Assembly (NCBI GenBank): GCA_017694765.1
Contig: JADIML010000169.1
Span: 1 to 32,913, forward strand
Length of the DNA: 32,913 nt
Direction: 5' to 3'
Source of the DNA: Candidatus Scybalomonas excrementavium
Lineage (GTDB): Bacteria > Bacillota > Clostridia > Lachnospirales > Lachnospiraceae
In this document: in pieces, positions 6,084 to 32,913 of the stretch
How positions within the stretch are numbered: position 1 is the first letter of the stretch
Layout of the letters: every line of letters begins with the position of its first letter
Notes under the pieces: generated by a model
The model's database searches: none
Told to the model about the DNA's origin: nothing
What the model saw: the letters and a program-made list of their open reading frames with translations, nothing else
Position numbers and translations under genes: made by a program

Positions 6084-6132
6084 TGATACTTTTACACATG
6101 TGATAATAAAAACAAAACTCCTAAGTATGAAA

Positions 6133-6164: not shown

Positions 6165-6198
6165 GAATGCATAAAAATATATAAAACCATTCTATATA

Positions 6199-7513: not shown

Positions 7514-7551
7514 AAAGACTGTCATCTCCCATTTGATGACAGTCTTTTTTT
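7514..7551 (+). terminator. Orphan intrinsic terminator with no recognisable upstream gene
   Basis: AAAGACTGTCATC-8 nt loop-GATGACAGTCTTT followed by a T-run. The T tail exists only on the + strand. Confidence 0.7.
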
Positions 7552-7668
7552 GCATGATAAACTTCCTCTTAATGAGTCAGTCTATCATAAATATGTTTGA
7601 TTTCCCGTTAAATTGTACAAAATTTCAACATGAATTTTAGTGGAATTATCAGAAAATATTGTACATGA

Positions 7669-7697
7669 TTGACACTTGTATACGAGTAGGGTATAGT
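7669..7697 (+). promoter_or_regulatory. uidA promoter TTGACA-17 nt-TATAGT with operator CTTGTATACGAG (7675-7686) filling the spacer
   Basis: Same architecture and nearly the same sequence as 11768-11796. Lies 39 nt upstream of the uidA ATG. Confidence 0.7.
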
Positions 7698-7735
7698 TTT
7701 AAATAAAAGAGTGTTAGTTATTAGGAGGAAAAATT

Positions 7736-9547: not shown

Positions 9548-9622
9548 TTTATATTTCCAGATAGTATATATGATAAAAGGGAAAAGAGTCATAACGATGC
9601 AGGAATTTTAGGAGGAGAAAAG

Positions 9623-10567: not shown

Positions 10568-10612
10568 ACGACATACAAATTATCCCTTTTTTCTACAATT
10601 TTCTTAGAAATA

Positions 10613-10621
10613 TGATATAAT
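10613..10621 (+). promoter_or_regulatory. Extended -10 element TGATATAAT, candidate promoter of the GntR-family gene
   Basis: TGnTATAAT read directly from the sequence, about 85 nt upstream of the ATG at 10705. No good -35. Confidence 0.45.
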
Positions 10622-10704
10622 GAAGTGACAAAGAAATTCATGAATTTATATTTATATAGAATGATTTGATTTTGGAAAAAGAGAGTAGGAATAGGGAGTA
10701 CAAT

Positions 10705-11460: not shown

Positions 11461-11465
11461 AAAAT

Positions 11466-11475
11466 CTGTATACAA
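11466..11475. promoter_or_regulatory. Operator-like site CTGTATACAA (9/10) immediately after the GntR-gene stop codon
   Basis: Read directly from the sequence. Abuts the terminator stem. Confidence 0.4.
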
Positions 11476-11476
11476 G

Positions 11477-11524
11477 GGGAACTAATTTTCGAAATAGTAA
11501 GTTAGAAAATTAGTTCCCTTTTAT
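11477..11524 (+). terminator. Intrinsic terminator of the GntR-family gene
   Basis: GGGAACTAATTTT-16 nt-AAAATTAGTTCCC (13-bp stem) followed by TTTTATTGTTTT. Confidence 0.85.
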
Positions 11525-11580
11525 TGTTTTTGGTATTGTAGATGTTTCTTGAAGCATACATACCATATATAATATCTAAA

Positions 11581-11590
11581 TTGTATACAA
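11581..11590. promoter_or_regulatory. Perfect 10-bp palindrome TTGTATACAA (distal operator candidate, about 190 nt upstream of the transporter promoter)
   Basis: Exact match, intergenic. Confidence 0.5.
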
Positions 11591-11767
11591 GTTTTTGATG
11601 AGAAAACTAGAATGTGTATGGATATAAGACGATTTTTGTAGAAAAATAGAGAAAGATAGGGGATATTTTCTTGTATTCCATTCAGAAAAAATAAAAAAGA
11701 AAATTGTTAAAATGCACAAAAAATTCATTGAAAAACTATGAAAAAATAACGAAAAAAATGTCTGGTA

Positions 11768-11796
11768 TTGACACTTGTATACAAGTGGTATATAGT
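11768..11796 (+). promoter_or_regulatory. Transporter/uxu operon promoter TTGACA-17 nt-TATAGT with the perfect operator CTTGTATACAAG (11774-11785) in the spacer
   Basis: Consensus -35, 17-nt spacer, near-consensus -10. An A-rich tract lies upstream. Confidence 0.75.
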
Positions 11797-11879
11797 TAAA
11801 ACATCAAAGGAAAAGCAATTCTGTTTTTCTTTTAATAGTGCTTCATAATCACAAAAAGAAATGGAGGAGAAAAGGAATT

Positions 11880-13280
11880 ATGAGTACAAAAACAAGTACA
11901 AAACCTTTCGGTATCAAAGATAAGTTCGGATACATGATGGGGGACATTGCAAATGACTTTATGTTTATGTTTGCAAGTGGATATTTAATGGTATTTTATA
12001 CTAAAGTATTAGGTGTAAGTGCCGCCCTTGTTGGAACATTATTTTTAGTTTCAAGAATTGTGGATGCTTTCACTGATATCGGAATGGGTGTTATCGTTGA
12101 TAGCGTCAAACCAGCAAAAGATGGTCGTTTCCGTTCTTGGATTCGCCGTATGTGTATACCAGTAACATTAGCAAGTTTCTTAATGTATCAAACAAGTCTT
12201 GCCGATGCATCTTTAACAGTGAAGACAGTCTATATGTTCGTGACATATATTCTTTGGGGATCTATTTGCTATACAGCGATTAATATTCCTTATGGTTCTA
12301 TGGCAGCTGCTATTTCAGCAGATCCAAAAGATAGAGCATCTTTATCTACATGGCGTTCAGTAGGAGCTCAGATTGCATCTACTGTAATCAATGCAGCAGT
12401 GCCAATGCTTATCTATCATGCAAATGCAGATGGAAATCAGGTCGTTAATAAAGGAATGTTCCCAAAAATTGCAGGTGTTTTTGCAATTTGTGCAGTTATC
12501 TGCTATATCATCTGTTATAAATTTACAACAGAGCGTGTTCAAGTTGCACCAAAAGAAAAAGCAGCAACAAAGAGCAATACAAATATCGTAGCAACTCTTT
12601 TCTCAAGTCGTGCGCTTATTGCTTTAATTTTAGCAGCAATTTTCTTAGTATTTGGAACAATTTTAGCAAGTAGCTTAAATGCTTACTTATATGCAGATTA
12701 TTTTAAAAATCCAGGTGCATTATCTACTTATAACTCATTAATGTTAATTGTAACACTTGGTCTTTCCCCATTTGTTGTAGTACTTTCTATGAAATTTGGT
12801 AAGAAAGAAACAGCAGTTGTAGGAACATTATTTACAGGTCTTGTTTATGTGTTATTATGTGTGTTACGTGTACAAAATCCATGGGTATACGTTGGAATTA
12901 GCTTTGTAGGTGCATTTGGTTATATGTACTTCCAGATGGCTGTATGGGCATTCTTAACAGACGTGCTTGATGATAGTGAAGTTCGTACACACAAACGTGA
13001 TGATGGTACTATCTATGGAGTATATTCTTTCGCAAGAAAACTTGGACAGGCATTAGCTGGTGGTCTAGGTGGATTTGCTTTAACAGCAATCGGATATGCA
13101 GAAAAAGCAGAAGTGCAGACAGAAGCAGTTAAAAATAGCCTATATACAGTAACAACATTAGGACAAGGTTCTGCTTATATTATTGTAGCACTTATCTTAT
13201 TATTCATTTATCCATTAAGCAAAAAGAAAATTAATGATAATACAAGAATTTTACAAGAGCGTCGTGAAAGCGCTAACTAA
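11880..13280 (+). CDS. Glycoside-pentoside-hexuronide (GPH) family cation symporter, candidate glucuronide importer
   Basis: About 12 hydrophobic segments. GPH-type N-terminus: KFGYMMGDIANDFMFMFASGYLMVFYTKVLG...LFLVSRIVDAFTDIGMG. Start at ATG 11880 after GGAGGAGAAAAGG; the ORF-track start at 11838 is a GTG. Confidence 0.82.
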   Translation: MSTKTSTKPFGIKDKFGYMMGDIANDFMFMFASGYLMVFYTKVLGVSAALVGTLFLVSRIVDAFTDIGMGVIVDSVKPAKDGRFRSWIRRMCIPVTLASFLMYQTSLADASLTVKTVYMFVTYILWGSICYTAINIPYGSMAAAISADPKDRASLSTWRSVGAQIASTVINAAVPMLIYHANADGNQVVNKGMFPKIAGVFAICAVICYIICYKFTTERVQVAPKEKAATKSNTNIVATLFSSRALIALILAAIFLVFGTILASSLNAYLYADYFKNPGALSTYNSLMLIVTLGLSPFVVVLSMKFGKKETAVVGTLFTGLVYVLLCVLRVQNPWVYVGISFVGAFGYMYFQMAVWAFLTDVLDDSEVRTHKRDDGTIYGVYSFARKLGQALAGGLGGFALTAIGYAEKAEVQTEAVKNSLYTVTTLGQGSAYIIVALILLFIYPLSKKKINDNTRILQERRESAN

Positions 13281-13579
13281 TCAAATAGACAGAAATTAAA
13301 TGAATGACATTGCTGCCCTTTTAGAATGGAACATGATAGTTTACTGGAAAAAGGGTGGCAGTGTTCACGTTATATAAAGGGATAGAAACTACTGTTCGTT
13401 TGAGTTAAAATAAGAATAAAGGAGACATACGCAGATAAGAGATGAGATTCAAGAGATATATTTGAACTTGGATTTGATTTGTTATCTGTGAAAAAGAATA
13501 GAAGTATTCTTTGTAATCGTCAGATAAAAGATTCATTAATGGTGTTAATATTTTATTTATAAGGAAAAAGGAGAATCAT

Positions 13580-14647
13580 ATGAGCGAAATGAAATTATCT
13601 TTCCGTTGGTACGGAGAAGACGACAAAGTTACATTAGAAAATATTAGACAGATTCCAGGAATGCACTCCATCGTAACAGCAGTATACGATGTACCAGTTG
13701 GAGAAGTTTGGCCAGAAGAATCTATCGCTAAATTAAAAAATTTAGTAGAGTCAAACGGACTTCACTTTGATGTAATTGAAAGTATTCCAGTACATGAAGA
13801 TATCAAACTTGGAAAACCTTCAAGAGATCGTTACATTGAAAACTACTGTGAAAACATTAGAAGAGTAGCAAAAGCTGGTGTAAAATGTATTTGCTATAAC
13901 TTCATGCCAGTATTTGACTGGACAAGAACACAGCTTGATCACAAATTAGAAGATGGTTCTACAACACTTGTATACTATCAGGAACAAGTAGATGTAGTAA
14001 ATCCTTTACAAAGTGATAGTGATTTAACACTTCCAGGATGGGATTCAAGCTACACAAGAGAAGAATTAAAAGATATCGTAGCAGAATATCATAACTTAAC
14101 AGAAGATGATTTATGGAACAACTTACAGTACTTCCTTGAAAAAATCATTCCTGTTGCAGCAGAATGTGATGTAAACATGGCAATTCATGAAGACGATCCA
14201 TGTTGGAGCATCTTTGGACTTCCAAGAATCATCACTTGTGAAGAAAACTTAGATCGTTTCTTAAAATTAGTAGATGACAAACATAACGGAATTACACTTT
14301 GTGCAGGTTCTCTTGGATGTTCTAACCAAAATGACGTAGCAGAAATGGCAGCAAAATATGCAGCTATGGGAAGAATTCACTTCGTACACATGAGAAACGT
14401 TAAAATTTTAGAAAACGGTTTCGAAGAAAGTGCACACCTTTCTAAATGTGGAAGCCTTGACATGTATGAAATTACAAAAGCATTACATGACAATGGATTT
14501 ACTGGATATATTCGTCCAGACCACGGAAGAATGATCTGGGGTGAAACAGGACGTGCTGGATATGGTCTTTATGACCGTGCTCTTGGAGCAACTTATATCA
14601 ACGGACTTTGGGAAGCAGTTGAAAAGAGTGCAAAAGACAGAAAATAA
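13580..14647 (+). CDS. uxuA: Mannonate dehydratase
   Basis: Canonical N-terminus [23 protein letters not shown], then [11 protein letters not shown] and IRPDHGR. AAGGAG RBS. Confidence 0.92.
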
Positions 14648-14700
14648 TTTTATAATAAAGTTAGCAAATTATTTGTAAAAAATTAAGGAGGAATTTAGAG

Positions 14701-15549
14701 ATGAAATTACCAATTCAAACAGATTTAAACGGAAAAGTAGCAGTTGTAACAGGTGCAGGTGGAGTTCTTTGCTCTATGATGGCTCACGCATTAGCAACAG
14801 CAGGAGCTAAAGTTGCTCTTCTTGATTTAAATGAAGAAGCTGCTCAAGCTTATGCAGATGAAATCGTAAAAGAAGGATATGTTGCAAAAGGATATAAAGC
14901 AAACGTATTAGATAAAGAAAGTTTAAAAGAAGCACATGATAAAATTCTTGCTGATTTTGGAACATGTGATATCTTAATCAATGGTGCAGGTGGAAATAAC
15001 CCAAGAGCAACAACAGATAAAGAATACTTTGAAGCTGGGGATATCGATGCTGATACAAAATCTTTCTTTGATTTAGAACAAAGTGGTGTTGAATTTGTAT
15101 TTAACTTAAACTTCATCGGAACACTTCTTCCAACACAAGAATTTGCAAAAGACATGGTAGAAAAAGAAGGATGTAACATTATTAACATTTCTTCTATGAA
15201 CGCTTACACACCACTTACAAAAATTCCTGCTTACAGTGGAGCAAAAGCTGCTATTAGCAACTTCACACAGTGGTTAGCAGTTCACTTTGCAGGAACAGGA
15301 ATTCGCGTAAATGCAATTGCACCAGGATTCTTCGTAACAAAGCAGAACGAAAAATTATTATATAATGAAGATGGAACACCAACAGCTAGAACAGGAAAAA
15401 TCTTAGCAGCTACACCAATGAAACGTTTTGGTGCTGCAGAAGAACTTCTTGGAAGTTTATTATTCTTAGTAAACAACGATGCAGCTGGATTTATTACAGG
15501 TGTTGTAATTCCAATCGATGGTGGATTCTCTGCTTACTCAGGAGTTTAA
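14701..15549 (+). CDS. uxuB: Short-chain dehydrogenase/reductase, candidate D-mannonate (fructuronate) oxidoreductase
   Basis: SDR motifs VVTGAGGVLC, NGAG, and the catalytic YSGAK. Adjacent to uxuA, as with the SDR-type UxuB of Bacilli. Substrate is inferred from context only. Confidence 0.72.
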   Translation: MKLPIQTDLNGKVAVVTGAGGVLCSMMAHALATAGAKVALLDLNEEAAQAYADEIVKEGYVAKGYKANVLDKESLKEAHDKILADFGTCDILINGAGGNNPRATTDKEYFEAGDIDADTKSFFDLEQSGVEFVFNLNFIGTLLPTQEFAKDMVEKEGCNIINISSMNAYTPLTKIPAYSGAKAAISNFTQWLAVHFAGTGIRVNAIAPGFFVTKQNEKLLYNEDGTPTARTGKILAATPMKRFGAAEELLGSLLFLVNNDAAGFITGVVIPIDGGFSAYSGV

Positions 15550-15572
15550 TGAATCAATAATTTATGTTAGAA

Positions 15573-15631
15573 CCATACGAACACTTCTATTATCCTTGTA
15601 GAAAAGGATGAAAGTGAAGTGTTTCGTATGG
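15573..15631 (+). terminator. Long hairpin after uxuB (weak terminator or processing/attenuation site)
   Basis: CCATACGAACACTTC ... GAAGTGTTTCGTATGG with an inner ATCCTT/AAGGAT stem. Only a short T-containing tail follows (GATCTTTC). Confidence 0.4.
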
Positions 15632-15743
15632 ATCTTTCATATCAAAAGAGCATAGGATAAAGTATCTCACGATAGAAAATGGGCGTGAAATTAAAAAAGA
15701 AAATTGTGAGAAGATAATGTTATGATTAGAAAGGATTGTTAAA

Positions 15744-17516
15744 ATGGCAAGAGTAGATTTAAAAGCAAAACCATATTACTTAGATGATGAAGCAATTAAA
15801 TGGGTAAAAGATACGATTGATTCTATGACAATTGAAGAAAAGATCGGACAGCTTTTCGTAAACATGGGTTCTTCAAGAACAGAAGAATATTTAACAGATG
15901 TTGTAACAAAATATAAATTTGGTGCTGTTCGTTATAATCCGGGTACAGCAAAAGAAGTATATGATCAGAACCGTATTTTACAAAAAGTATCTAAAATCCC
16001 AATGCTTATTGCAGCAAATACAGAAGCTGGTGGAAATGGTGCTTGTACAGATGGTACAGAAATTGGTTTAGAAGTAAAAGTTGGTGCTACAAATGATGTG
16101 AAATACGCGTATGAAATGGGACGTGTTTCTGGGATTGAAGCAGCAGCAGTTGGATGTAACTGGTCTTTTGCACCAATCGTAGATATTAACCGTAACTGGA
16201 GAAATCCAATTATCTCTAACCGTACATTCGGTGATGATCCTGATCGTGTTTTAGAATTTTCTAAAGCATATATGAAAGGTTTCATGGAAAGCAACATGGT
16301 TTGTGCAATGAAACATTTCCCAGGAGATGGAATTGATGAAAGAGATCAACATTTAAGCAATTCGGTAAACACATACTCTTGTGAAGAATGGGATGAAACA
16401 TTTGGTAAAGTATACAAAGGTATGATCGATGCAGGTGTTCATACAGTTATGGCAGGTCATATTATGATGCCAGCTTACCAAAAATTCTTCAATCCTTCTA
16501 TGAAAGATGAAGAAACAATGCCAGCAACTCTTTGTAAAGAGTTAATTACTGACTTATTAAGAGGAAAATTAGGTTTCAACGGTATGGTTGTAACAGATGC
16601 TTCTCACATGGTTGGTTTAACAGCAATGATGAAGAGAAGTGATATTCTTCCTCATGCGATTGCAGCAGGATGTGATATGTTCTTATTCTTCAACGATCCA
16701 GATGAAGATTTCGAATATATGATGAACGGATACAAAAATGGTGTCATCACAGAAGAACGTCTTCAAGATGCATTAGAAAGAATCTTAGGTGTAAAAGCAT
16801 ACTTAGGACTTCACAAAAAAACACCAGAACAAATTACACCAGCAGAAGAAGGATTAAGTGTAATCGGTTCAGAAGAATTTAAAGAGATCGCAAAAGAAGT
16901 ATCTGATAAAGCGATCACATTAGTAAAAAATATCGGAGATTCTCCACTTCCACTTTCTACAGAAAAACACAAACGTGTTTTATTAGTTTCACAGGAAAAA
17001 GAAAGTGCATTTGCACTTATGGCTGGTGGAGCTGGAAAAAAAGAAAGTCATATTGATTATTTAAAGAAAAAGTTAGAAGCAGAAGGATTCGAGGTTACAA
17101 TTTACGAATCTGCAATCGATAAGATAGCAAAACTTCCAAAAGAAGAAGTTGGACAGGCTATGAAAAATATGTATGCTGGAAAAGCGCCTATTACTAACAT
17201 TACAGATAACTATGATTTAATTATCCAAGTTGCTTATGTAGATAGCTTATGTGCAACGGTACAGAGAATTGAGTGGAAATTAAGCAAAGGGACACCAGAT
17301 ATGCCTTGGTATGTGCATGAAATTCCAACAATCTTCATTTCTCTTTGCTGTCCATTCCACTTAGCAGATGTACCTCAAGTAAAAACTTATATCAATGCTT
17401 ATGATAAAAATGAACATACATTAGATGCACTTGTGGAAAAATTAGTGGGACGTTCTGAATTTAAAGGAATTGATCCTGTTGATTCCTTCTGTGGATTACC
17501 TGATACACGTTGGTAA
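15744..17516 (+). CDS. Glycoside hydrolase family 3 protein, no signal peptide (cytoplasmic)
   Basis: GH3 N-terminal domain motifs EEKIGQLF, KHFPGDG..ERDQH, and GFNGMVVTDA (nucleophile Asp region). The N-terminus is hydrophilic. Confidence 0.82.
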   Translation: MARVDLKAKPYYLDDEAIKWVKDTIDSMTIEEKIGQLFVNMGSSRTEEYLTDVVTKYKFGAVRYNPGTAKEVYDQNRILQKVSKIPMLIAANTEAGGNGACTDGTEIGLEVKVGATNDVKYAYEMGRVSGIEAAAVGCNWSFAPIVDINRNWRNPIISNRTFGDDPDRVLEFSKAYMKGFMESNMVCAMKHFPGDGIDERDQHLSNSVNTYSCEEWDETFGKVYKGMIDAGVHTVMAGHIMMPAYQKFFNPSMKDEETMPATLCKELITDLLRGKLGFNGMVVTDASHMVGLTAMMKRSDILPHAIAAGCDMFLFFNDPDEDFEYMMNGYKNGVITEERLQDALERILGVKAYLGLHKKTPEQITPAEEGLSVIGSEEFKEIAKEVSDKAITLVKNIGDSPLPLSTEKHKRVLLVSQEKESAFALMAGGAGKKESHIDYLKKKLEAEGFEVTIYESAIDKIAKLPKEEVGQAMKNMYAGKAPITNITDNYDLIIQVAYVDSLCATVQRIEWKLSKGTPDMPWYVHEIPTIFISLCCPFHLADVPQVKTYINAYDKNEHTLDALVEKLVGRSEFKGIDPVDSFCGLPDTRW

Positions 17517-17573
17517 TTTTTACTATAGTGTATCCTATTATTTGATAATAGAAGAGATTAGGAGATGAAAAAG

Positions 17574-18410
17574 ATGGGATACTTTGATTTTAAGAAAGAA
17601 AAAGATTTCCTTGTTTGTATCGACAGCGATGGTTGTGCGATGGATACAATGAATGTAAAACATTTTAAATGTTTTGGACCAGAATGGATTAAACAATATG
17701 GTTTAGAAGAAGTAGAAGAAGAAGGACTTGCTTACTGGAATGAAGTAAACCTTTTCACAAAAACAAGAGGAATTAACCGTTTCAAAGGATTAGCATTAGG
17801 TCTTCTTTGGGCAAGAGAAAAAGGATATGAAATCGAAGGGCTTGATGAGTTTGTAACATGGACCAAAGAAGCAAATGAGCTTTCTAATCCAGCTCTTATG
17901 GCGTACTGCCAAAAAACAAACAACCCATGTATGGAAAATGCACTTCTTTGGAGTATTCATGTAAATCGTTCTATTACAGAGCTTCCAAAAGATGATAAAC
18001 CATTTGAACATGTAAAAGATACAATGGATTTTATGTGCCAACAAGCAGATTTAACAGCCGTATCTTCTGCTAATGGAGAAGCTGTTGAAACAGAGTGGAC
18101 AAAACATGGATTAAAAGAAGATTGCCGTGTGCTTTTAAGCCAAGAAGCTGGTTCTAAAGCATATTGTATCGGAGAACTATTAAAACTTGGATATGACAAG
18201 AAGAACACATTAATGGTTGGAGATGCACCTGGAGATAGAGATAGTGCCTTCAAAAATGGCGTTTGGTTCTTCCCAATCATCGTAAATAAAGAAGGCGAAA
18301 GCTGGGAACGTTTAAAAAATGAGGCTTTCCCTAAATTAGTAGAAGGTACATTTGATGAAGCGTACCAAAAAGAATTACTTGATATGTTTGAAAAAGCACT
18401 AGATGCTTAA
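17574..18410 (+). CDS. HAD-superfamily hydrolase (phosphatase-like)
   Basis: HAD motif I CIDSDGCAMDT, motif II AVSSA, and motif IV MVGDAPGDRDSA. Start taken at the second ATG (17574), 9 nt after AGGAG; the first ATG (17565) abuts the RBS. Confidence 0.72.
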   Translation: MGYFDFKKEKDFLVCIDSDGCAMDTMNVKHFKCFGPEWIKQYGLEEVEEEGLAYWNEVNLFTKTRGINRFKGLALGLLWAREKGYEIEGLDEFVTWTKEANELSNPALMAYCQKTNNPCMENALLWSIHVNRSITELPKDDKPFEHVKDTMDFMCQQADLTAVSSANGEAVETEWTKHGLKEDCRVLLSQEAGSKAYCIGELLKLGYDKKNTLMVGDAPGDRDSAFKNGVWFFPIIVNKEGESWERLKNEAFPKLVEGTFDEAYQKELLDMFEKALDA

Positions 18411-18483
18411 TGTATGTGAAGGGCAAGTAACTTGCCATGTAATCGGTTTTGAAATAATAAAGTAAAATATTGTATAAAAGAGG

Positions 18484-18540
18484 AGGTGTTATGACAATTT
18501 AAGAGAGCAAATTTCTTAAGTTGTTTTAACACCTTTTTTG
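18484..18540 (+). terminator. Strong intrinsic terminator only 36 nt upstream of the uxaC start codon
   Basis: AGGTGTTA...TAACACCT outer stem, extended by ACAA/TTGT and an inner TTAAGA/TCTTAA stem, followed by TTTTTT. The 5' arm contains AGGAGG plus a 3-codon ORF, ATG ACA ATT TAA. Confidence 0.7.
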
Positions 18541-18575
18541 GAATTAGAAGAAATAATAGATGGAGGAACTGTAAA

Positions 18576-19991
18576 ATGAAAAAATTTATGGATCAAGATT
18601 TTTTACTTTCTACAGAAACTGCAAAAATTCTTTATCATGAATATGCAGAAAAAACACCAATTTTAGATTACCACTGTCATATCAATCCACAAGAGATTGC
18701 AGAAGACAGACATTTTGATAATATTACACAAGTTTGGCTTGGTGGCGATCACTATAAATGGCGTCAGATGCGCAGCAATGGTGTAGAAGAACGCTATATT
18801 ACAGGAGATGCTTCTGATAGAGAAAAATTCCAAAAATGGGCAGAAACATTAGAAAAAGCAATTGGAAACCCTCTTTATCATTGGAGCCATTTAGAGTTAA
18901 AAAATTACTTCGGATATGAAGGTGCTTTAAATGGTGATACAGCAGAAGAAGTTTGGAACATTTGTAATGAAAAACTTGCCAAGCCTGAAATGAGTGCAAG
19001 AGGAATTATGAAGGCTTCTGGTGTAACATTGATTTGTACAACAGATGATCCAATTGATGACTTAAGATGGCATAAGATAATTAAAGAAGATGAAACATTT
19101 GATATTCAAGTTCTTCCAGCTTGGAGACCAGATAGAGCAGTTTCTATTGAAAAACCAGATTTTGTTGATTATACAAAACAACTCGCTGAAGTTGCAGGAG
19201 TAGAAATCAAAACATTTGCTGATTGGAAATGTGCCATGACAAAGAGAATGGAATTCTTCAATGAAATGGGATGTAAAGCAAGTGATCATGGTTTATTATA
19301 CATTCCATATGTAGAAGCAACAGAGGCAGAAGTAGATGCCATTTTAGCAAAACGTTTTGCTGGTGAAGGATTATCGGAAGACGAAGAAATGAAATTTAAA
19401 ACAGCTTGCATGCTTTACTTAGGAAAAGAATATAAGAGACTTGATTGGGGTATGCAATTACACTTTGGTGTAACAAGAAATAACAATACAAAGATGTTTA
19501 AGAAAATTGGAGCAGATACAGGATTTGATGGCATTTACAATCGTGTACCAATTACAGAATTAGCTTCTTATCTCGATGCTCTTTGTATGGAAGATCAGCT
19601 TCCAAAAACAGTTCTTTATAGTTTAAATCCAACGGATAATGCTTCTATTGGAACACTTCTTGGATGTTTCCAAGAATCAGATGCAGTTGGAAAAATTCAA
19701 CAAGGTTCCGCATGGTGGTTCAACGATCATAAGACAGGAATGACAGAACAAATGTTATCTCTTGCAAACTTAGGACTTCTTGGAAACTTTATTGGAATGT
19801 TGACAGATTCAAGAAGTTTCTTATCTTATACAAGACATGAATATTTCAGAAGAATTCTTTGTGAACTTGTAGGAAACCTTGTAGAAAATGGAGAGTATCC
19901 ATGGGATCAAGAGCGTGTGGGAGCTATGATCAAAAATATTTCTTACAATAACTCTGTACGTTACTTTGGATTCTCTTTAGAAACTGTATAA
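18576..19991 (+). CDS. uxaC: Glucuronate isomerase
   Basis: Canonical N-terminus FMDQDFLLSTETAKILYHEYAEKTPILDYHCHINPQEIAED, then GDHYKWR and WWFND. GGAGG RBS. Confidence 0.95.
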   Translation: MKKFMDQDFLLSTETAKILYHEYAEKTPILDYHCHINPQEIAEDRHFDNITQVWLGGDHYKWRQMRSNGVEERYITGDASDREKFQKWAETLEKAIGNPLYHWSHLELKNYFGYEGALNGDTAEEVWNICNEKLAKPEMSARGIMKASGVTLICTTDDPIDDLRWHKIIKEDETFDIQVLPAWRPDRAVSIEKPDFVDYTKQLAEVAGVEIKTFADWKCAMTKRMEFFNEMGCKASDHGLLYIPYVEATEAEVDAILAKRFAGEGLSEDEEMKFKTACMLYLGKEYKRLDWGMQLHFGVTRNNNTKMFKKIGADTGFDGIYNRVPITELASYLDALCMEDQLPKTVLYSLNPTDNASIGTLLGCFQESDAVGKIQQGSAWWFNDHKTGMTEQMLSLANLGLLGNFIGMLTDSRSFLSYTRHEYFRRILCELVGNLVENGEYPWDQERVGAMIKNISYNNSVRYFGFSLETV

Positions 19992-28061: not shown

Positions 28062-28070
28062 TTGCTATAG

Positions 28071-28104
28071 AAAGGGAAGAAACGAAATGGTTTCTTCCCT
28101 TTTT
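28071..28104 (+). terminator. Intrinsic terminator of rpoC
   Basis: AAAGGGAAGAAAC-GAAATG-GTTTCTTCCCTTT followed by a T-run. Confidence 0.9.
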
Positions 28105-28241
28105 ACTTTATAGAAAATTTTTCTTAGTAAGTCACACTTTATTCAGACTCTATAAGATGGGTATGATGATAAAAGTGAATCAAATTAAGGAATATAGCCG
28201 AAATTTACTTTTAAAAAAATGAAAAAATTTACAAAAAAGTA

Positions 28242-28270
28242 TTGACAAAATATGGATATGCGAGTAATAT
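28242..28270 (+). promoter_or_regulatory. SigmaA-type promoter TTGACA-17 nt-TAATAT driving the riboswitch leader
   Basis: Consensus -35, exact 17-nt spacer, and an A-rich upstream tract. Lies about 20 nt before riboswitch unit 1. Confidence 0.7.
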
Positions 28271-28287
28271 ATGTGCATACAATAAAT

Positions 28288-28392
28288 AGTAAAAAGGCAA
28301 AATTACTGAAAAGTAATGACGCAAAGTTAAGTATCTAAGGCAATAAAGCTATGATCGACTGACTGCACTGTTAATTTAACAGTGCTTTTTTT
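28288..28392 (+). promoter_or_regulatory. c-di-GMP-I (GEMM-I)-like riboswitch unit 1: aptamer plus intrinsic terminator
   Basis: AAAAAGGCAAA, then the AUUACU-GAAA-AGUAAU hairpin, then GACGCAAAG, then UCUAAGG...CUAUGA (tetraloop-receptor-like). The terminator is GCACTGTT-AATTT-AACAGTGC plus T7. Confidence 0.8.
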
Positions 28393-28552
28393 ATTTCATA
28401 AAAAGAGTTTGTCCATTCTTTTAGAAGAGAATTGGTTTTCTATGAAAGAAGAAAGCGTGAGAAAATGTAACTCAGAACAATAAAGTATAAAGGATGTAAA
28501 CTTTATGATAAATGAGGTTACGAATTGTTAGGAAAACCAAAGAGATAGAAGA

Positions 28553-28658
28553 AGTAAAAGGGCAAAATTACTGAAAAGTAATGACGCAAAGTTAAGTGTC
28601 TAAGGCAAATAAAGCTATGATTGACTAACTGCACTGTTAATTTAACAGTGCTTTTTTT
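28553..28658 (+). promoter_or_regulatory. c-di-GMP-I (GEMM-I)-like riboswitch unit 2: aptamer plus intrinsic terminator
   Basis: Direct repeat of unit 1, differing by 4 substitutions and a 1-nt indel, with the same conserved strands and an identical terminator. Confidence 0.8.
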
Positions 28659-28681
28659 ATTTCATAGGAAATACCTTGTTA

Positions 28682-28730
28682 CATTGTTAGAAGTAACTGA
28701 AAGTTACGAAGAGTGTACAAGGGACACTTT
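28682..28730 (+). repeat. 49-nt intergenic repeat, copy B (matches 20193-20241 at 42/49 positions)
   Basis: CATTGTTAGAAGTAACTGAAAGTTACGAAGAGTGTACAAGGGACACTTT. Contains the hairpin GTAACT-GAA-AGTTAC. Lies between riboswitch unit 2 and the first ORF. Confidence 0.8.
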
Positions 28731-28764
28731 ATTATGAGCCAAATAAAAGAGAGGGGAGACTTCT

Positions 28765-29139
28765 ATGACAGATAAAGAATTAAAAAAGTTAGGGCGTGTA
28801 GCACTCTTAGAAATGTTAGTTGATATGGGTAAAAGAAATGAAGAGTTAGAACATGAAAATGAAGTATTAAAAAAACTTCAAGAAGAGAAGGAGATTCGAA
28901 TTCAAAATGCAGGTTCTATAGCAAATGCAGCGTTGGAGTTAAATAAAGTATTTGAAAATGCTCAAGCAGCAGCTGATCAATATTTATCAAATATAAAGCA
29001 GTTACAAAAAAAGGAAGAAGAACAAGCAAACACGATATTAGAGGAAGCAAACTTGAAAGCACAATGGATATTAGAACAAGCCAAAAAGGAAGCAGATCAA
29101 ATCCTATCAAATGCGAAATTAAAAGCAGAGGCTACGTAG
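28765..29139 (+). CDS. Small coiled-coil protein of unknown function (124 aa, no signal peptide)
   Basis: GAGGGGAG RBS 7 nt before the ATG. Heptad-like charged sequence (EELEHENEVLKKLQEEKE...EEANLKAQWILEQAKKEADQILSNAKLKAE) with a central AGSIANAALELNKVFENAQAAADQYL segment. I recognise no family. Confidence 0.6.
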   Translation: MTDKELKKLGRVALLEMLVDMGKRNEELEHENEVLKKLQEEKEIRIQNAGSIANAALELNKVFENAQAAADQYLSNIKQLQKKEEEQANTILEEANLKAQWILEQAKKEADQILSNAKLKAEAT

Positions 29140-29231
29140 GAAAGAAAATAGTTCTGATAGAAATAAAAAACTAAGAAAGGGTAGAGTTCATTCGCTAGTA
29201 TCAAGAAAGATAGCGAGAAAAGAGGTAGTAT

Positions 29232-29813
29232 ATGAAAGCAGATACAAAAGAAATTGCAACGGTAGAGCAGCTAGAAAAAGAGCTCAAACGTGTTCGGCAT
29301 ACAAAAGAATATGGAAGAACATTAAGAGGCACAATATACATTTTACTTGTTGTTGCAGCAGTAGCTTTTTTAATTGCTACATTGTTTTTACCAGTTCTTA
29401 GAGTATACGGAACGAGCATGGAACCAACATTAAAGAATAAAGAAATTGTAGTAGCCTTAAAAGGAAGTGAATTCAAACGAGGCGATATCGTAGCTTTTTA
29501 TTACAATAATAAAATTCTCTTAAAACGGGTGATTGGAGTAGCTGGTGACCAAATTGTAATCGAGAAAGATGGAACCGTTTTTGTAAATGGAGAAAAGTTA
29601 GAAGAGCCTTATATTTCAGGAAAAAGTCTTGGTGAATGTGATTTATCATTTCCATATCAAGTTCCTGATAATCGGATCTTTGTTATGGGAGACCATCGAG
29701 ATGTATCCATAGATAGTCGATCCTCAACGATTGGATGTATTGCAGATGAATCCATCGTAGGAAAAGTAGCCATTCGGGTTTGGCCACTGAATGAAATAGG
29801 ACTTATCAATTAG
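29232..29813 (+). CDS. lepB: Signal peptidase I (S26A), catalytic Ser/Lys present
   Basis: N-terminal TM anchor IYILLVVAAVAFLIATLFL, Ser box YGTSMEPTL, Lys box LLKRVIGVAGD, and box E VMGDHRDVSIDSR. Confidence 0.9.
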   Translation: MKADTKEIATVEQLEKELKRVRHTKEYGRTLRGTIYILLVVAAVAFLIATLFLPVLRVYGTSMEPTLKNKEIVVALKGSEFKRGDIVAFYYNNKILLKRVIGVAGDQIVIEKDGTVFVNGEKLEEPYISGKSLGECDLSFPYQVPDNRIFVMGDHRDVSIDSRSSTIGCIADESIVGKVAIRVWPLNEIGLIN

Positions 29814-29832
29814 AGAGAGGAGGGAAGCCGTT

Positions 29833-32800
29833 ATGCAAAAAGAACTTCAAACCAAAATAAGTCAATACTTAAAAAATAGTATGAAAATGAGACATCATTA
29901 TCAAATTCTTACGGTTATTGCCATAGCTGTTATATTTCTTGTATATAGTGTTTTAACAAAACCAGCTATTAGTATGGCATACGATAATATTAGCGTAGAA
30001 GCTATGAGGGAAAATACAGCATTTGGACAAGTAGTTCCAGTAAGAATTACAGCACAAGCATTGCAAGGAACAGAACCAACTACGTTCGTTATTTATACAA
30101 AAGGTGTTGGTGGTGGATTATCTTTCGAATATCAATTCAATGAAGAAAATATTTGTGAAGTAATGACAGAAGACGGAACTACAATTCAGTTACATAAAGA
30201 AGAAATACTGGATGAAGAAAACAGGAATGTTATAAAACATAACTATTGGTTTACGTTACAACCAGAAGAAAAGACAGCATTTGTTTTAAATTATACATCG
30301 GATGTAGAGGTTATTACGAATGAAAGTAATGTTAGTACAGGTGGAGGAAGCCAAGTACAACCAGAACAAACATCAGAGAATATAGAAAGTTCAAAAGAGG
30401 ACACAGGAAGTACTGATGTGACAGAAGAAGAAAAGACAGAAGCGACAACAGAAAAAGCAACGGAAGAAGAAGCAGAAGCGACAACAGAAAAAATACCAGA
30501 AGAAGAAAAGGCAGAAGCCACGACAGAAAAAGTACCAGAAGAAGAACAAGTAGAAGCCACAACAGAAAAAATACCAGAAGAAGAACAAGTAGAAGCCACA
30601 ACAGAAAAAGTGCCAGAGGAAGAAAAGACAGAAGTGGCAACAGAAAAAGTAATAGAAGAAGAACAAGTAGAAGACACAACAGATAAGTCAGAAAATGTGA
30701 AGCAAGAAGTCACAGCAGAGAAGAAAGATGTGACAATAGTTGATCCAACGACATTTAATAAAATTGCGATGACCGAAGCAGCATATATCATGGCAGAAAA
30801 TGATATAGAACATACAGAGAGTGAAGTGACAGAACAAGTATCCACAGAAAGTCAAGAAGTAACAACAGAAGAAAACAGTCATACAACACCAGAAGAGATA
30901 CCAAAAGCGGATCAAAATCTTACAGGACCAGAAGTATTACCTGAAGAGACTACAGAGGTAACAGTTCCTATTCACGATGAAGAAGAGATACAACAAGAAA
31001 TGCCAAAAATGGATCAATATTTAGAGATTTATGTGGCAGCATCAGCAGATGGTGGATATGGAGAAATTGCACAGCAATTACAAGGAGAAGTGGAAGGCTG
31101 GAAAGGTAATGTTCCAGTGGAACGCATTGAAAATAAGAAAGTTGCAAATCTTTCTTGGACAGCAGAAGAAAATGTTAGTGACATTATAGTAAAGGCAAGA
31201 ACAAAAGAAGATACACTGGTTACAATATCAGGAAGTAAAAGCAATTTTAATGAAACAGATTTAAAAGATATTCGTATAAAAGCAGAGGAATCTTCTAATA
31301 TGGATATGGAAACTCTAAAATCCATGTTAGAGAGTGACGAGCTTAGTATTTTAGAACAAAAAGGATTCCAAATTGTATTTCTAACGAATGGGCAAGAAGT
31401 ACAACCAACAGGAGACTTTAATATTACCTTTGAAGAATTCGAGTATGATAAAGATACAAAAACAGTAGAAGTATATCAGACGAATGAAGAAGGTGCATGG
31501 AAAAAAATAGATTCTAACTTTAGTGAGGATGGCAGTTTACGAATTTTAGTAAATGGTACTTCTTATAAGCAAAATGAAATTGTATTTTTAGGAAATAAAA
31601 CGCCTACTAAAATAAGTAAAAATGGATTAACTGCAATTCATATTACAAAAGAATGGAAAGATGAAAAAGAGCCAGAAGATATCACAGAAATTGGAATTCA
31701 CATTTACAATGATGAAGGAAAAGAAGTTGCAACGACAACATTGACGAAACAAGCTAGTTGGAAAGCAACAGTAAAAGATCTTCCTTTATATAATGCAAAT
31801 GGAGAACGGATTCAATATTCTGTTGTAGAAGATGAAATTCAAGGATATCCATCTGGAATGGCACAATATAGTGGACAAGAAAAAGTATGGGTTCCAGTAA
31901 AAGAAGAGGAAATTACAGAGGATTCCGAATACTTAACAATTATCAAAGAAAATGATAAACAATATGTTTATAGTAGCAAAGATCCTTCTAATAAAGTGGA
32001 AGTAACAAAAGAACAGCTTGGAGAACAAGTTGTAAAAGATATTAATGGCATAGAAACAAGTTGTTTTATTATTCAAGAAGAAGAAATTGCAAAACGGCTT
32101 GGAATAGAAACAGGAATAGAAGAAGATCTGGAAGTTACTATTGAAGATGTAGATGAAATAGAGGCAGCTATTAAGGAGGAAGAAGAATTAACAATTTCTA
32201 CATATAAGCCACTTTCTTTAAAAACTTCCATAGAAGAAGAGGAAACAAATATAAACACTTATGTAGGAAGTTATAAAGAAGAGTATACAGATTCTGTTGT
32301 AGTGCTTACGAGTGGAAATAGTGATAATGGTAGTACAACGGTTACAGTAACAAAAGAATGGCTTGATGGAGAAGAACATCCAGATTCTGTAACGGTACAG
32401 TTATATAGAAGATACAAAGGAGAAAATAGCTGGAAAGAAGAACATAAAGTATCTGGTTACACTTTAGTCTTGAGTGAGGCCAATCATTGGACTAGTCAAT
32501 GGGATAACCTTCCAAGTCGAGATAGAACAAAACAATATGAATATACAGCACGTGAAGTAGAAATTCCAGATGGATATGAGGCAATTACAGCAACGAACCA
32601 AGAATATAATTGGGAGGCTGTTACTACATTAGAAAATAATCAGACATATTTGATTTTATCTAGTAACGGATATACGTTTAATAGTAGCTTAGATGTAGTT
32701 AATATCAATTCTACAGGTAGTGAGAAAGCCAATAATATCCAAAATCAGTGGATAGTAGAAACAAGTAATGATGGTATATATTTAAAGAATGTATATAATG

Positions 32801-32913
32801 ACAAATATATAGCCTGGACAAGCAATGATAATGATAGTTGGAAATTAGTAGAAAACAGATCGAATGCAGAAAAATTTCAATATTATAATAATAAATTATA
32901 TATAAAAGGATAT
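29833..32913 (+). CDS. Large secreted surface protein/adhesin with acidic tandem repeats and at least two Cna-B-type domains (3' end outside the window)
   Basis: Not in the supplied ORF track because it has no stop: 1027 in-frame codons from ATG 29833 (after AGGAGGG) to the window end, by my own translation. Signal/anchor HHYQILTVIAIAVIFLVYSVLTKPAISMA. Cna-B-like segments are AIHITKEWKDEKEPEDITEIGIHIY...RIQYSVVEDEIQGY and VTVTKEWLDGEEHPDSVTVQLYR...YEYTAREVEIPDGYEA. Several listed minus-strand ORFs between 30291 and 32258 are its antisense shadows. Confidence 0.8.
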   Translation, partial: MQKELQTKISQYLKNSMKMRHHYQILTVIAIAVIFLVYSVLTKPAISMAYDNISVEAMRENTAFGQVVPVRITAQALQGTEPTTFVIYTKGVGGGLSFEYQFNEENICEVMTEDGTTIQLHKEEILDEENRNVIKHNYWFTLQPEEKTAFVLNYTSDVEVITNESNVSTGGGSQVQPEQTSENIESSKEDTGSTDVTEEEKTEATTEKATEEEAEATTEKIPEEEKAEATTEKVPEEEQVEATTEKIPEEEQVEATTEKVPEEEKTEVATEKVIEEEQVEDTTDKSENVKQEVTAEKKDVTIVDPTTFNKIAMTEAAYIMAENDIEHTESEVTEQVSTESQEVTTEENSHTTPEEIPKADQNLTGPEVLPEETTEVTVPIHDEEEIQQEMPKMDQYLEIYVAASADGGYGEIAQQLQGEVEGWKGNVPVERIENKKVANLSWTAEENVSDIIVKARTKEDTLVTISGSKSNFNETDLKDIRIKAEESSNMDMETLKSMLESDELSILEQKGFQIVFLTNGQEVQPTGDFNITFEEFEYDKDTKTVEVYQTNEEGAWKKIDSNFSEDGSLRILVNGTSYKQNEIVFLGNKTPTKISKNGLTAIHITKEWKDEKEPEDITEIGIHIYNDEGKEVATTTLTKQASWKATVKDLPLYNANGERIQYSVVEDEIQGYPSGMAQYSGQEKVWVPVKEEEITEDSEYLTIIKENDKQYVYSSKDPSNKVEVTKEQLGEQVVKDINGIETSCFIIQEEEIAKRLGIETGIEEDLEVTIEDVDEIEAAIKEEEELTISTYKPLSLKTSIEEEETNINTYVGSYKEEYTDSVVVLTSGNSDNGSTTVTVTKEWLDGEEHPDSVTVQLYRRYKGENSWKEEHKVSGYTLVLSEANHWTSQWDNLPSRDRTKQYEYTAREVEIPDGYEAITATNQEYNWEAVTTLENNQTYLILSSNGYTFNSSLDVVNINSTGSEKANNIQNQWIVETSNDGIYLKNVYNDKYIAWTSNDNDSWKLVENRSNAEKFQYYNNKLYIKGY
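30424..30693 (+). repeat. Seven in-frame tandem repeats of 39 nt (one of 36 nt) encoding EEE(K/Q)xEATTEKxP
   Basis: Unit boundaries at 30424, 30463, 30499, 30538, 30577, 30616 and 30655. Units at 30538 and 30577 differ at only 3 nt. Confidence 0.9.

Follow-up and report, generated by a model that had tools for sequence, protein, structure and literature searches.

Which surface structure lies behind two consecutive c-di-GMP riboswitches near the end of a contig, and what do the two genes in front of it contribute? We examined this question in a 32,913-nt stretch of Candidatus Scybalomonas excrementavium DNA (the window). The host of the operon is an uncultured gut Clostridia species. A sequence-only reading had described tandem riboswitches and three co-oriented, closely spaced genes resembling one transcription unit, interpreted as a secretion or maturation system for one adhesin. 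The arrangement was borne out, including intergenic gaps of 92 and 19 nt (Table 1), and the claim that no terminator separates the three genes agrees with a consensus scan that found no plus-strand terminator-like site between 28659 and 32913. The window probably carries the regulatory leader of a sortase-dependent (SpaA-type) pilus operon with seven genes, together with the first three of them. A pilus built by sortases and governed by two c-di-GMP riboswitches is an already known kind of system; the literature describes adhesins controlled by c-di-GMP, c-di-GMP-I switches in tandem, and signal peptidases linked to pili. The coiled-coil and peptidase genes, as a pair, seem not to have been described so far, and their pairing is conserved at the front of pilus operons across many gut Clostridia.

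Table 1. Features of the pilus locus in the window
Feature	Position	Strand	Basis and details
Hairpin and T-run after the rpoC stop, GGGAAGAAAC-loop-GTTTCTTCCC-TTTTT	28074..28104	+	Read directly from the sequence; absent from the consensus-scan list
Sigma-70-like promoter, TTGACA-17-TAATAT	28242..28270	+	Best promoter-like site of the region; 10/12 matches, consensus match only
c-di-GMP-I aptamer 1	28286..28370	+	Rfam RF01051, 69.5 bits, E 7.7e-12
Intrinsic terminator 1	28365..28392	+	Terminator scan and folding; 9-bp stem, -10.4 kcal/mol, T7
c-di-GMP-I aptamer 2, duplicate of aptamer 1	28551..28636	+	Rfam RF01051, 68.9 bits, E 1.1e-11
Intrinsic terminator 2, identical to terminator 1	28631..28658	+	Terminator scan
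Coiled-coil gene, 124 aa	28765..29139	+	ORF; large uncharacterised family
Type I signal peptidase, 193 aa	29232..29813	+	Peptidase_S26 1.8e-35; TIGR02227 3.5e-38
Tip-pilin gene, 5' 59%	29833..32913	+	ATG at 29833; 1027 codons without a stop up to the window end
Atypical tip-pilin leader	29833..29979	+	Long basic n-region, hydrophobic segment, ...VYSVLTKPAISMA/YD (slash, inferred cleavage site)
Acidic 13-aa repeat stalk	30422..30683	+	Repeat search; 39 nt x 6.8 copies
Cna_B domain 1, aa 602-676	31636..31860	+	Profile match
Second Cna_B stretch	about 32336-32595 (approximate)	+	Position read off the sequence/translation

A seven-gene pilus operon

The tip-pilin ORF runs off the window end and is missing from the supplied ORF track, because lists that require a stop codon omit such frames. 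Its visible part holds what had been described, namely a surface protein of more than 1027 aa with an N-terminal leader, an acidic repeat stalk, and Cna-B domains (two Cna_B stretches, 1.7e-20). The earlier proposal to extend the contig in search of the C-terminus and a nearby sortase was pursued through same-species contigs that share 98.8-99.5% identity with the window, encode identical coiled-coil and peptidase proteins, and carry the full operon with LPETG and two sortases. The gene order is coiled-coil protein, peptidase, 1733-aa tip pilin, 586-aa backbone pilin, class C sortase, 413-aa pilin, and, as the last gene, a 197-aa sortase. The full tip pilin (near-identical contig L001) combines Cna_B, VWA, DUF7604, and SpaA domains with LPETG; its stalk differs in copy number between strains, and the L002 and L003 alleles are 49 aa shorter. 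The backbone pilin is of the SpaH/EbpB type with LPSTG (NF033902, 103.5 bits, cut-off 95; also TIGR04226), and a simple pattern search did not find the canonical YPKN pilin motif in it. The first sortase belongs to class C (NF033745, 277.9 bits, cut-off 160), and the 413-aa pilin carries Cna_B and LPQTG. During assembly, the class C sortase would polymerise the LPSTG backbone pilin beneath the LPETG tip adhesin with its VWA and Cna_B domains, and the LPQTG Cna_B pilin and small second sortase would complete the fibre and anchor it.

The window itself shows a single surface protein, adjoining the peptidase, which fits the original idea of a c-di-GMP-gated secretion and maturation system for a single stand-alone adhesin. 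That idea is contradicted by the backbone pilin, class C sortase, basal LPQTG pilin, and second sortase of the same-species operon, and by the same downstream pilus architecture at most related loci, making it very improbable. Coiled-coil and peptidase genes without an adjacent surface protein were also looked for, and the opposite was seen, with the conserved pair heading pilus operons across many genomes.

The tandem riboswitch leader

The hairpin after rpoC divides rpoBC from the pilus leader. Transcription would start about 490 nt upstream of the coiled-coil gene, and the transcript would have to traverse two complete c-di-GMP-I riboswitches in series. Both aptamers exceed the RF01051 (c-di-GMP-I) gathering score of 35. 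The two aptamer-terminator units form a direct duplication, 96-97% identical at a spacing of 265-266 nt, with the hairpin GCACTGTTAATTTAACAGTGC and T7 after each aptamer; compared by eye, the differences between aptamers 1 and 2 preserve P3 pairs (A-U to G.U and U.G to U-A). In aptamer 1, a candidate P1 pairs AAUAGU (28285-28290) with ACUGUU (28367-28372) and forms in the MFE structure predicted for the nascent transcript, and the 5' arm of terminator 1 overlaps its 3' strand. In a single-copy orthologue (L017), a comparable P1 is longer (GAUAAAAUAGU/ACUGUUUAUUU), and at another locus (L098) the aptamer likewise shares its 3' side with the terminator. P1 shows no covariation, the paired bases being identical in the orthologue.

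Because the terminator 5' arm overlaps P1, c-di-GMP likely switches the pilus operon ON. Each terminator 5' arm (GCACUGUUAA) would include the 3' strand of the aptamer P1; bound c-di-GMP would stabilise P1 and block the terminator, permitting read-through, and two ON switches in tandem would yield a steep, near-digital c-di-GMP response. A close counterpart is the validated ON switch of Bacillus thuringiensis Bc3-5, in which near-identical copies also follow one another, every copy being a full class I aptamer with its terminator, and in which the terminator likewise overlaps the binding-site C and P1 (PMC4759541). This triple-tandem switch becomes more digital with more copies and precedes cspABCDE, an operon for five proteins predicted to lie at the cell surface, four of them carrying a wall-anchoring motif, matching the wall-anchored surface proteins downstream here (PMC4759541). 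The window differs in having two copies instead of three, and its operon can be identified by sequence as a pilus cluster that includes sortases and a peptidase.

The reverse polarity, in which c-di-GMP would repress the pilus (e.g., a planktonic- or colonisation-phase pilus), has a precedent in Clostridioides difficile, whose functional class I riboswitches are OFF, one of them controlling a putative adhesin (PMC6200980). It is also compatible with the full-length MFE fold, which lets the aptamer hairpins P2 and P3 coexist with the terminator, and with the second riboswitch copy, in which P1 is not clear in constrained folds. We nevertheless consider OFF switches unlikely, as the terminator 5' arm starts right at the aptamer 3' end and takes in the P1 3' strand, a separate antiterminator segment is not evident in the leader, and the same layout is experimentally ON in Bc3-5. 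Among related loci, the riboswitch is seen in few lineages only and lies outside the conserved coiled-coil/peptidase module.

The signal peptidase and the tip-pilin leader

The Ser/Lys dyad reported for the peptidase was confirmed by alignment with Staphylococcus aureus SpsB, Ser62 (GTSMEPT) and Lys98 (LKRVIG) of the window peptidase falling in the SpsB catalytic boxes; both residues and a GDxRxxSxDSR box are kept here and across the peptidase clade. The N-terminus comprises a conserved charged cytoplasmic tail (residues about 8-34; consensus P-[TS]-x-E-Q-[LIV]-E-x-E-[LR]-x-R-x-R-Y-[RK]-x-R-[YF]..TL[RK]ST; net charge about +5.8) followed by a single transmembrane segment. The adjacent tip-pilin leader is a variant (subtype VY[GS]xLxxPA[IV]SM) of a conserved ...YALILPAIT leader, and LAxVVVFCTTYALILPAIT occurs in 29 of 53 tip-like proteins encoded after the peptidase, despite their unrelated adhesive domains.

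Judging from these sequences, the peptidase is probably active on the tip-pilin leader. The operon-encoded S26 enzyme would be catalytically competent and dedicated to the pilus, most likely removing the tip-pilin leader and perhaps other pilin leaders; the pattern for removal would be a long basic n-region and ...Y-x-L-x-x-P-A-I-[ST]/M, with cleavage predicted at the slash. A SipA-like role, in which the protein would be a non-proteolytic, peptide-binding assembly factor for pilin polymerisation and housekeeping peptidases would remove the leaders, draws on the precedent of Streptococcus pyogenes SipA, which is essential for polymerisation without peptidase activity (PMC4049620). The pilus-island location and matches to the SipA/LepA structure sequences (4n31, 4k8w, about 1e-9) are shared features, and an intact dyad is compatible with a non-catalytic chaperone function. 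Such a role is improbable in light of the greater similarity to active SpsB (5.8e-18), the clade-wide conservation of Ser62, Lys98, and the GDxRxxSxDSR box, and the conserved atypical leader of the neighbouring pilin, which suggests a specific substrate.

The coiled-coil protein

Profile searches assigned the coiled-coil protein to no Pfam or NCBIfam family, in agreement with its earlier description as unassigned. Its family is conserved over about 75 N-terminal aa (MTDKELRKLSR..ELLE..., followed by AGSIAxAALELNxVFExAQAAADQYL), with a short helix-turn-long helix at the N-terminus, and region 13-80 has a net charge of about -4.3. Across 80 genome loci, the peptidase directly follows the coiled-coil gene in 67 of 79 assessable cases (85%), most commonly with a 4-nt overlap, and this adjacency spans several families. 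The reverse search, starting from the peptidase, found the coiled-coil gene directly upstream of 4/4 homologues. Among Ruminococcus second-copy peptidases, which represent very few independent lineages, those with the tail have a short coiled-coil gene upstream and those without it have none.

We tentatively favor the coiled-coil protein as a physical partner of the peptidase, at somewhat below even confidence. This conserved cytoplasmic partner would bind, through its acidic coiled coil, the basic cytoplasmic tail of the peptidase, the basic n-region of the tip-pilin leader, or both, and such binding would tie export and processing to the site where the pilus is assembled. Twelve of the 79 coiled-coil genes do not adjoin a peptidase but occur by themselves in unrelated contexts, scattered among the linked members instead of forming a separate clade, so the family may have a more general role. 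These members, a locus where a tip-like protein follows the coiled-coil gene directly and no peptidase is present (L074), a weak similarity to DivIVA/Wag31 (4.4e-5, far below cut-off), and the N-terminal helices, which we take to resemble small nucleic-acid-binding helix-extension-helix motifs, could point to an operon regulator or general DivIVA-like scaffold. We view this as rather unlikely given the prevalent peptidase adjacency with frequent overlaps in several families, the covariation of coiled-coil presence with the peptidase tail, and the absence of any DNA-binding domain or known regulator family from the profile searches.

Relation to known systems

The comparison drawn earlier with the pilus-island peptidases SipA/LepA proved apt. 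SpaA/RrgB-type pilus islands of S. pyogenes FCT (SipA/LepA), Streptococcus suis srtF, and Clostridium perfringens VR-10B also encode a signal-peptidase homologue, and share with the window one operon for tip adhesin, backbone pilin, minor pilin, pilus-specific sortase, and S26-family protein, as well as a tip pilin with VWA, Cna_B/SpaA domains, and an LPXTG signal. In contrast to those islands, the window peptidase has a conserved basic cytoplasmic tail and keeps the Ser/Lys dyad, where S. pyogenes SipA has Asp/Gly at the same positions; the tip-pilin leader is atypical and conserved; and a small second sortase is encoded. A coiled-coil gene also precedes the peptidase, often with overlapping stop and start codons, and the publications consulted on those islands mention no such gene. 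Bacillus subtilis tapA-sipW-tasA likewise encodes a dedicated signal peptidase beside fibre-forming substrates, but SipW belongs to the ER/archaeal type of peptidases, TasA fibres lack sortase-made links, and the window peptidase scores 15.9 bits on the SipW model (cut-off 190). Within Clostridia, C. difficile also places sortase-dependent surface proteins and pili under c-di-GMP riboswitches (CD630_28310/32460 adhesins, pilA1 type IV pili), although class II riboswitches serve the adhesins and type IV pili that are under positive control there, its class I copies being OFF, whereas the window pilus is sortase-assembled (PMC6200980).

Gene content, domain identities, gene-order conservation, aptamer matches, and the terminator/P1 overlap are directly established. 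Building on these, we propose that the coiled-coil protein and the peptidase would together constitute an export and processing module for the tip pilin.

Pilus operon identity

The three co-oriented genes at the right end of the window are predicted to form the 5′ end of a SpaA-type pilus operon. As the sequence-only reading had described, they follow tandem riboswitches, with intergenic gaps of 92 and 19 nt; a purine-rich ribosome-binding site precedes each gene, and a terminator scan of the window found no plus-strand terminator-like site between them. The third reading frame was absent from the ORF track because no stop codon lies inside the window, and the large surface protein of more than 1027 aa noticed at the outset is borne out by 1027 open codons, two Cna_B stretches, and an acidic repeat array (39 nt × 6.8).

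Many metagenome contigs encode coiled-coil and peptidase proteins identical to those of the window. Eight of them are 98.8–99.5% identical to window positions 28062–32913 and are thus of the same species; contig L001, 99.3% identical across the shared 4.9 kb, carries a class C sortase beyond the window end. Behind rpoBC, the same-species contigs encode a seven-gene cluster, whose pilins and sortases mark the giant Cna-B surface protein as the probable tip pilin of a sortase-assembled pilus. The 586-aa LPSTG protein also matches TIGR04226, GramPos_pilinBB, and SpaA, and carries an RrgB-type isopeptide domain. The simple pattern [YW]PK[NDH], representing the YPKN-like pilin motif that is degenerate in many pilins, found no match in the backbone pilin, whose signal peptide looks ordinary. 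A C-terminal anchor and a nearby sortase, which the sequence-only reading had advised looking for, were both located on the same-species contigs (LPETG; a class C and a second sortase). Its suggestion of a system serving one adhesin did not survive, as these contigs encode a backbone pilin, an LPQTG pilin, and two sortases.

Features of the pilus locus and its surroundings
Feature	Position	Strand	Remarks
Hexuronate cluster	window 7736–19991		GH2, PfkB kinase, GntR regulator, MFS_2 transporter, UxuA, an SDR, GH3, UxaC
Hairpin and T-run after rpoC stop	28074–28104	+	separates rpoBC from the leader; read from sequence
Sigma-70-like promoter	28242–28270	+	good consensus match
c-di-GMP-I aptamer 1	28286–28370	+	Rfam RF01051 (GEMM-I), 69.5 bits
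c-di-GMP-I aptamer 2	28551–28636	+	Rfam RF01051 (GEMM-I), 68.9 bits
Coiled-coil gene	28765–29139	+	124-aa ORF
Signal peptidase gene	29232–29813	+	193-aa ORF
Tip-pilin gene (predicted), 5′ part	starts 29833	+	open for 1027 codons up to window end
Cluster genes 1 and 2	same-species contigs		coiled-coil protein, 124 aa; peptidase, 193 aa
Cluster gene 3	same-species contigs		1684–1733 aa; Cna_B, VWA, DUF7604, SpaA domain, LPETG anchor
Cluster gene 4	same-species contigs		586 aa, LPSTG; SpaH/EbpB major pilin NF033902, 103.5 bits (cut-off 95)
Cluster gene 5	same-species contigs		class C sortase, NF033745, 277.9 bits (cut-off 160); TLVTC motif
Cluster gene 6	same-species contigs		413 aa, Cna_B, LPQTG
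Cluster gene 7	same-species contigs		second sortase, 197 aa
c-di-GMP-I aptamer, Eubacteriales genome L098	8943–9018		49.8 bits; upstream of an Rrf2-family gene, then coiled-coil gene, peptidase, and pilus genes

The tip-pilin gene varies among strains. Contigs L004 and L006 (99.4–99.5% identical, same species) share a CAA-to-TAA nonsense mutation at codon 75 (window ~30055; ~10824 in both contigs), providing natural null alleles of the adhesin with the rest of the operon largely intact. The acidic 13-aa repeat stalk (window 30422–30683; 39 nt × 6.8) differs in copy number between strains, with alleles 49 aa shorter in L002 and L003, and tip proteins span 1684–1733 aa. Past the second Cna_B stretch (window ~32600–32913; residues ~925–1027), repeated QxW-like motifs (NQW, DSW) suggest a ricin-type beta-trefoil lectin module, for which Pfam gave no hit. 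Upstream of rpoBC lies a glucuronide/hexuronate utilization cluster that appears unrelated to the pilus operon. Separately, a Clostridiales-1 RNA (RF01699, 124 bits) lies antisense to a Bariatricus pilus operon, between the backbone pilin and sortase genes (L079, 16822–16973, minus strand).

Riboswitch architecture and distribution

Both aptamers exceed the RF01051 gathering threshold of 35 bits, cover model positions 1–87 of 87, and display in the Rfam alignment the class I hallmarks: the GAAA tetraloop, GGCAAA, GACGCAAAG, and CUGC / 3′ C. Selectivity for c-di-GMP versus c-AMP-GMP follows G versus A at the first G of GGC (PMC9481103), and the G found there in both copies fits c-di-GMP over c-AMP-GMP. 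An expression platform is present in each, with an intrinsic terminator that begins at the aptamer 3′ end: directly after each aptamer come the hairpin GCACTGTTAATTTAACAGTGC and seven consecutive T, the same in both copies. The two aptamer-plus-terminator units are a duplication, 96–97% identical and 265–266 nt apart, and their few aptamer differences, read by eye, preserve the P3 pairs.

In the nascent-transcript fold, helix P1 pairs AAUAGU (28285–28290) with ACUGUU (28367–28372), closing the three-way junction. The ACUGUU strand is also part of the terminator 5′ arm, which begins at the aptamer's final nucleotides. In the related species L017, where the rpoC synteny is retained and the coiled-coil protein shares 57% identity with that of the window, the single riboswitch has a longer P1 (GAUAAAAUAGU/ACUGUUUAUUU) that likewise overlaps its own terminator. 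The same P1/terminator layout occurs in the triple-tandem Bc3-5 switch of Bacillus thuringiensis, in which c-di-GMP turns transcription ON, more digitally with more copies (PMC4759541). Because the layout matches an experimentally ON switch, the P1/terminator overlap is predicted to make this a tandem ON/ON c-di-GMP switch, a direction we consider probable. Some caution is warranted, as the functional class I switches of Clostridioides difficile are OFF (PMC6200980), constrained folding gave no clear P1 for the second copy, and P1 lacks covariation support. Among tandem riboswitch arrangements, class I doublets are the most frequent (347 doublets; PMC9481103), and the regulatory part of this locus is therefore ordinary, as is the pilus.

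A pattern scan of all loci, together with Rfam on 14 loci, placed class I aptamers ahead of the coiled-coil/peptidase genes only in the window species (a doublet), L017 (a single copy), Blautia L053 and L055 (35.6 bits), and the Eubacteriales genome L098. The L098 terminator also overlaps the 3′ side of its aptamer. We rejected the riboswitch as part of the conserved module given its presence in few lineages by these searches. Clostridium sp. D33t1 (L100) instead encodes a PAS-GGDEF protein (1104 aa, 5847–9161) immediately upstream of the coiled-coil/peptidase/pilus operon. These few scattered riboswitch lineages and the PAS-GGDEF neighbor indicate that c-di-GMP control is a recurrent, lineage-specific add-on to the module. 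In D33t1, a T2SSE/T2SSF cluster (566–5450; Tad or type IV pilus-like) precedes the PAS-GGDEF gene, and in the window species a convergent T2SSE gene lies just after the pilus operon (L002, 20549 onward).

A coiled-coil family linked to signal peptidases

The first gene had been described as encoding a coiled-coil protein of no assignable family, and scans of Pfam and NCBIfam returned no family for it. Pfam gave sub-threshold noise only (SrfA, DUF4848), NCBIfam gave sub-threshold coiled-coil matches (Wag31, FliH, ATP synthase b/E), and a profile search of PDB sequences yielded designed helical bundles and ATP synthase b only. DivIVA membership was rejected, with no Pfam DivIVA match and NF050102 scoring 23.5 bits versus 260 across the coiled-coil part only. 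The AlphaFold model (pLDDT 90.8) has a short helix joined by a turn to a single long helix. The protein has 105 homologue clusters at 90% identity, and a profile search of the wider family found 3,776 representatives at E ≤ 1e-10 (~3,800 clusters at 50% identity). The best 150 of 4,894 representatives are all 124–262 aa long; their domain lies at the N-terminal end or close to it (from residue 1 in ~140), and none has a domain fusion hinting at function. The only named NCBI copies among those looked up are “hypothetical protein”. Conservation is concentrated in the first ~75 residues, which read MTDKELRKLSRxELLE..., then AGSIAEAALELNxVFEAAQAAADQYL.

A scan of one genome per GTDB species confirmed 373 coiled-coil loci, of which the best 80 were examined. 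The sequence-only reading had proposed co-occurrence of the coiled-coil gene with the peptidase and surface protein as a check. This linkage held for most of the best 80 of 373 loci: an S26 peptidase directly follows the coiled-coil gene in 67 of 79 assessable cases, most commonly with a 4-nt overlap, and most linked loci continue with a large variable protein, a backbone pilin, a class C sortase, a Cna_B pilin, and a small sortase. Approached from the peptidase side, all four homologues (named isolates and MAGs: Clostridium transplantifaecale, Ligaoa, Clostridium sp. D33t1, and a Eubacteriales genome) are immediately preceded by a coiled-coil family gene (E 1e-36 to 7e-42) and followed by the same set of pilus genes.

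The linkage failed for the remaining 12 of 79, which do not adjoin a peptidase. One group of these adjoins a gene whose product, judged by its N-terminal sequence, looks like an Mrp-type ATPase; others have unrelated neighbors. A separate paralogue clade of stand-alone genes was rejected, as they are interspersed with linked ones save for one tight group beside the Mrp-like ATPase. On this basis, the function of the family may be wider, or its stand-alone members may work in trans. These interspersed genes away from any peptidase also speak for the coiled-coil protein being a regulator or general scaffold, a reading that we regard as unlikely.

The peptidase, its cytoplasmic tail, and the tip-pilin leader

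The linked enzyme is a bacterial type I signal peptidase (Peptidase_S26, 1.8e-35; TIGR02227, 3.5e-38, 131 bits versus a cut-off of 47). Its Ser62 and Lys98 align with the catalytic boxes of Staphylococcus aureus SpsB, upholding the intact Ser/Lys dyad read from the sequence. It sits in a pilus operon and matches the chain sequences of 4n31 (SipA) and 4k8w (LepA) at ~1e-9. In the inactive Streptococcus pyogenes SipA, Asp/Gly replace Ser/Lys, whereas the window peptidase keeps both residues and so does not share the lost dyad of that type; it resembles the SipA-type homologues of S. suis and S. agalactiae, which retain the dyad (PMC4049620). A SipW-type (ER/archaeal-type) peptidase was rejected (NF046067, 15.9 bits versus 190; TIGR02228, 29.4 versus 51.85).

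Ahead of the transmembrane segment, the linked peptidases have in common a cytoplasmic tail at the N-terminus, P-[TS]-x-E-Q-[LIV]-E-x-E-[LR]-x-R-x-R-Y-[RK]-x-R-[YF]-x-x-T-L-[RK]-S-T, which to our knowledge is absent from housekeeping Gram-positive peptidases. Its membrane-proximal 20 residues are strongly basic (~+5.8), and residues 13–80 of the coiled-coil protein are acidic (~−4.3). Ruminococcus L034, L075, and L077 contain a second, divergent operon on the minus strand, just upstream of a divergent peptidase, comprising a mini coiled-coil gene, peptidase, class C sortase, Cna_B pilin, and sortase. The mini protein (60–65 aa) retains only the N-terminal 40 residues of the family, marking these as its probable minimal conserved unit. 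In the second Ruminococcus operons, across few lineages, tailed peptidases are preceded by a mini coiled-coil gene and tail-less ones have no such gene, a co-occurrence that is suggestive of linkage between tail and coiled-coil protein.

The gene after the peptidase usually encodes an LPXTG protein of 0.8–2.9 kaa, whose adhesive domains are entirely different from one genome to the next (VWA; LRR_5 with CHAP; fibro-slime; ricin-type lectin; DUF7601). The leader is conserved: after a long basic n-region, 29 of 53 cases carry LAxVVVFCTTYALILPAIT(M/A/L) and the rest carry related variants. The window subtype, ...VYSVLTKPAISMA↓YD (arrow, predicted cleavage), recurs as VY[GS]xLxxPA[IV]SM in four other genomes. 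Because signal peptides ordinarily show no sequence conservation, finding it in a leader beside a dyad-retaining, dedicated peptidase points to a specific enzyme–substrate pair. After the leader, within the first 60–120 aa, many tip proteins (L026, L034, L039, L041, L051, L075, L087, L092, L096, and others) carry a repeated Cys/His-rich element, CGxEEHxHxxxC[YF], which is absent from the window tip pilin and gave no Pfam or NCBIfam hit in three proteins scanned.

Discussion

By family membership, the locus carries a c-di-GMP-I riboswitch and a SpaA-type pilus cluster, and no S. pyogenes-type lost dyad, SipW, or DivIVA. The closest systems are the SipA/LepA pilus islands, the B. thuringiensis Bc3-5 tandem switch, and the C. 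difficile c-di-GMP regulon, and by analogy from its genes the locus would work as they do; a peptidase is likewise encoded in the pilus operon of Clostridium perfringens VR-10B (PMC8088525). We found no description in the searchable literature of a module joining a coiled-coil protein, a tailed peptidase, and a conserved leader, although absence there is not proof. Tentatively, and as a possibility we would still bet against, the coiled-coil protein, the tailed active peptidase, and the atypical tip leader may constitute an unrecognized three-part export and processing module, licensing tip pilins for sortase pili in many gut Clostridia (Oscillospiraceae, Lachnospiraceae, Ruminococcus, Blautia), with the coiled coil recruiting or gating the peptidase through its basic tail.

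Beyond the observed gene content, domains, gene order, sequence conservation, and RNA architecture, we infer which way the switch acts, that the peptidase acts on the leader, and, above all, that the coiled-coil protein and the peptidase interact. In the proposed sequence of events, c-di-GMP bound to both aptamers would allow read-through into the operon, and the tip pilin would be exported via its special leader and cleaved near PAI[ST]↓M by the operon’s own peptidase. The cytoplasmic coiled-coil protein would bind the basic tail of the peptidase and/or the basic n-region of the leader, which would organize export and processing where the pilus is assembled. The class C sortase would then polymerize the backbone pilin beneath the tip adhesin, and the LPQTG pilin and second sortase would complete and anchor the fiber.

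Sortase pili are major colonization organelles that have received little study in the dominant gut Clostridia. This locus indicates that they can be wired directly to c-di-GMP via tandem class I riboswitches, with a riboswitch link in at least four lineages. Its conserved, unannotated two-gene head pairs a coiled-coil protein, whose family merits a family model and a name, with a predicted active signal peptidase bearing a conserved cytoplasmic tail, and the conserved leader on otherwise extremely variable tip adhesins points to a dedicated processing step. With catalytic residues, a candidate substrate motif, and a candidate cytoplasmic partner, this clade makes the SipA/LepA role directly testable. 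If true, the three-part module would offer a mechanistic entry point to the long-standing question of why SipA-type peptidases are encoded in pilus islands.
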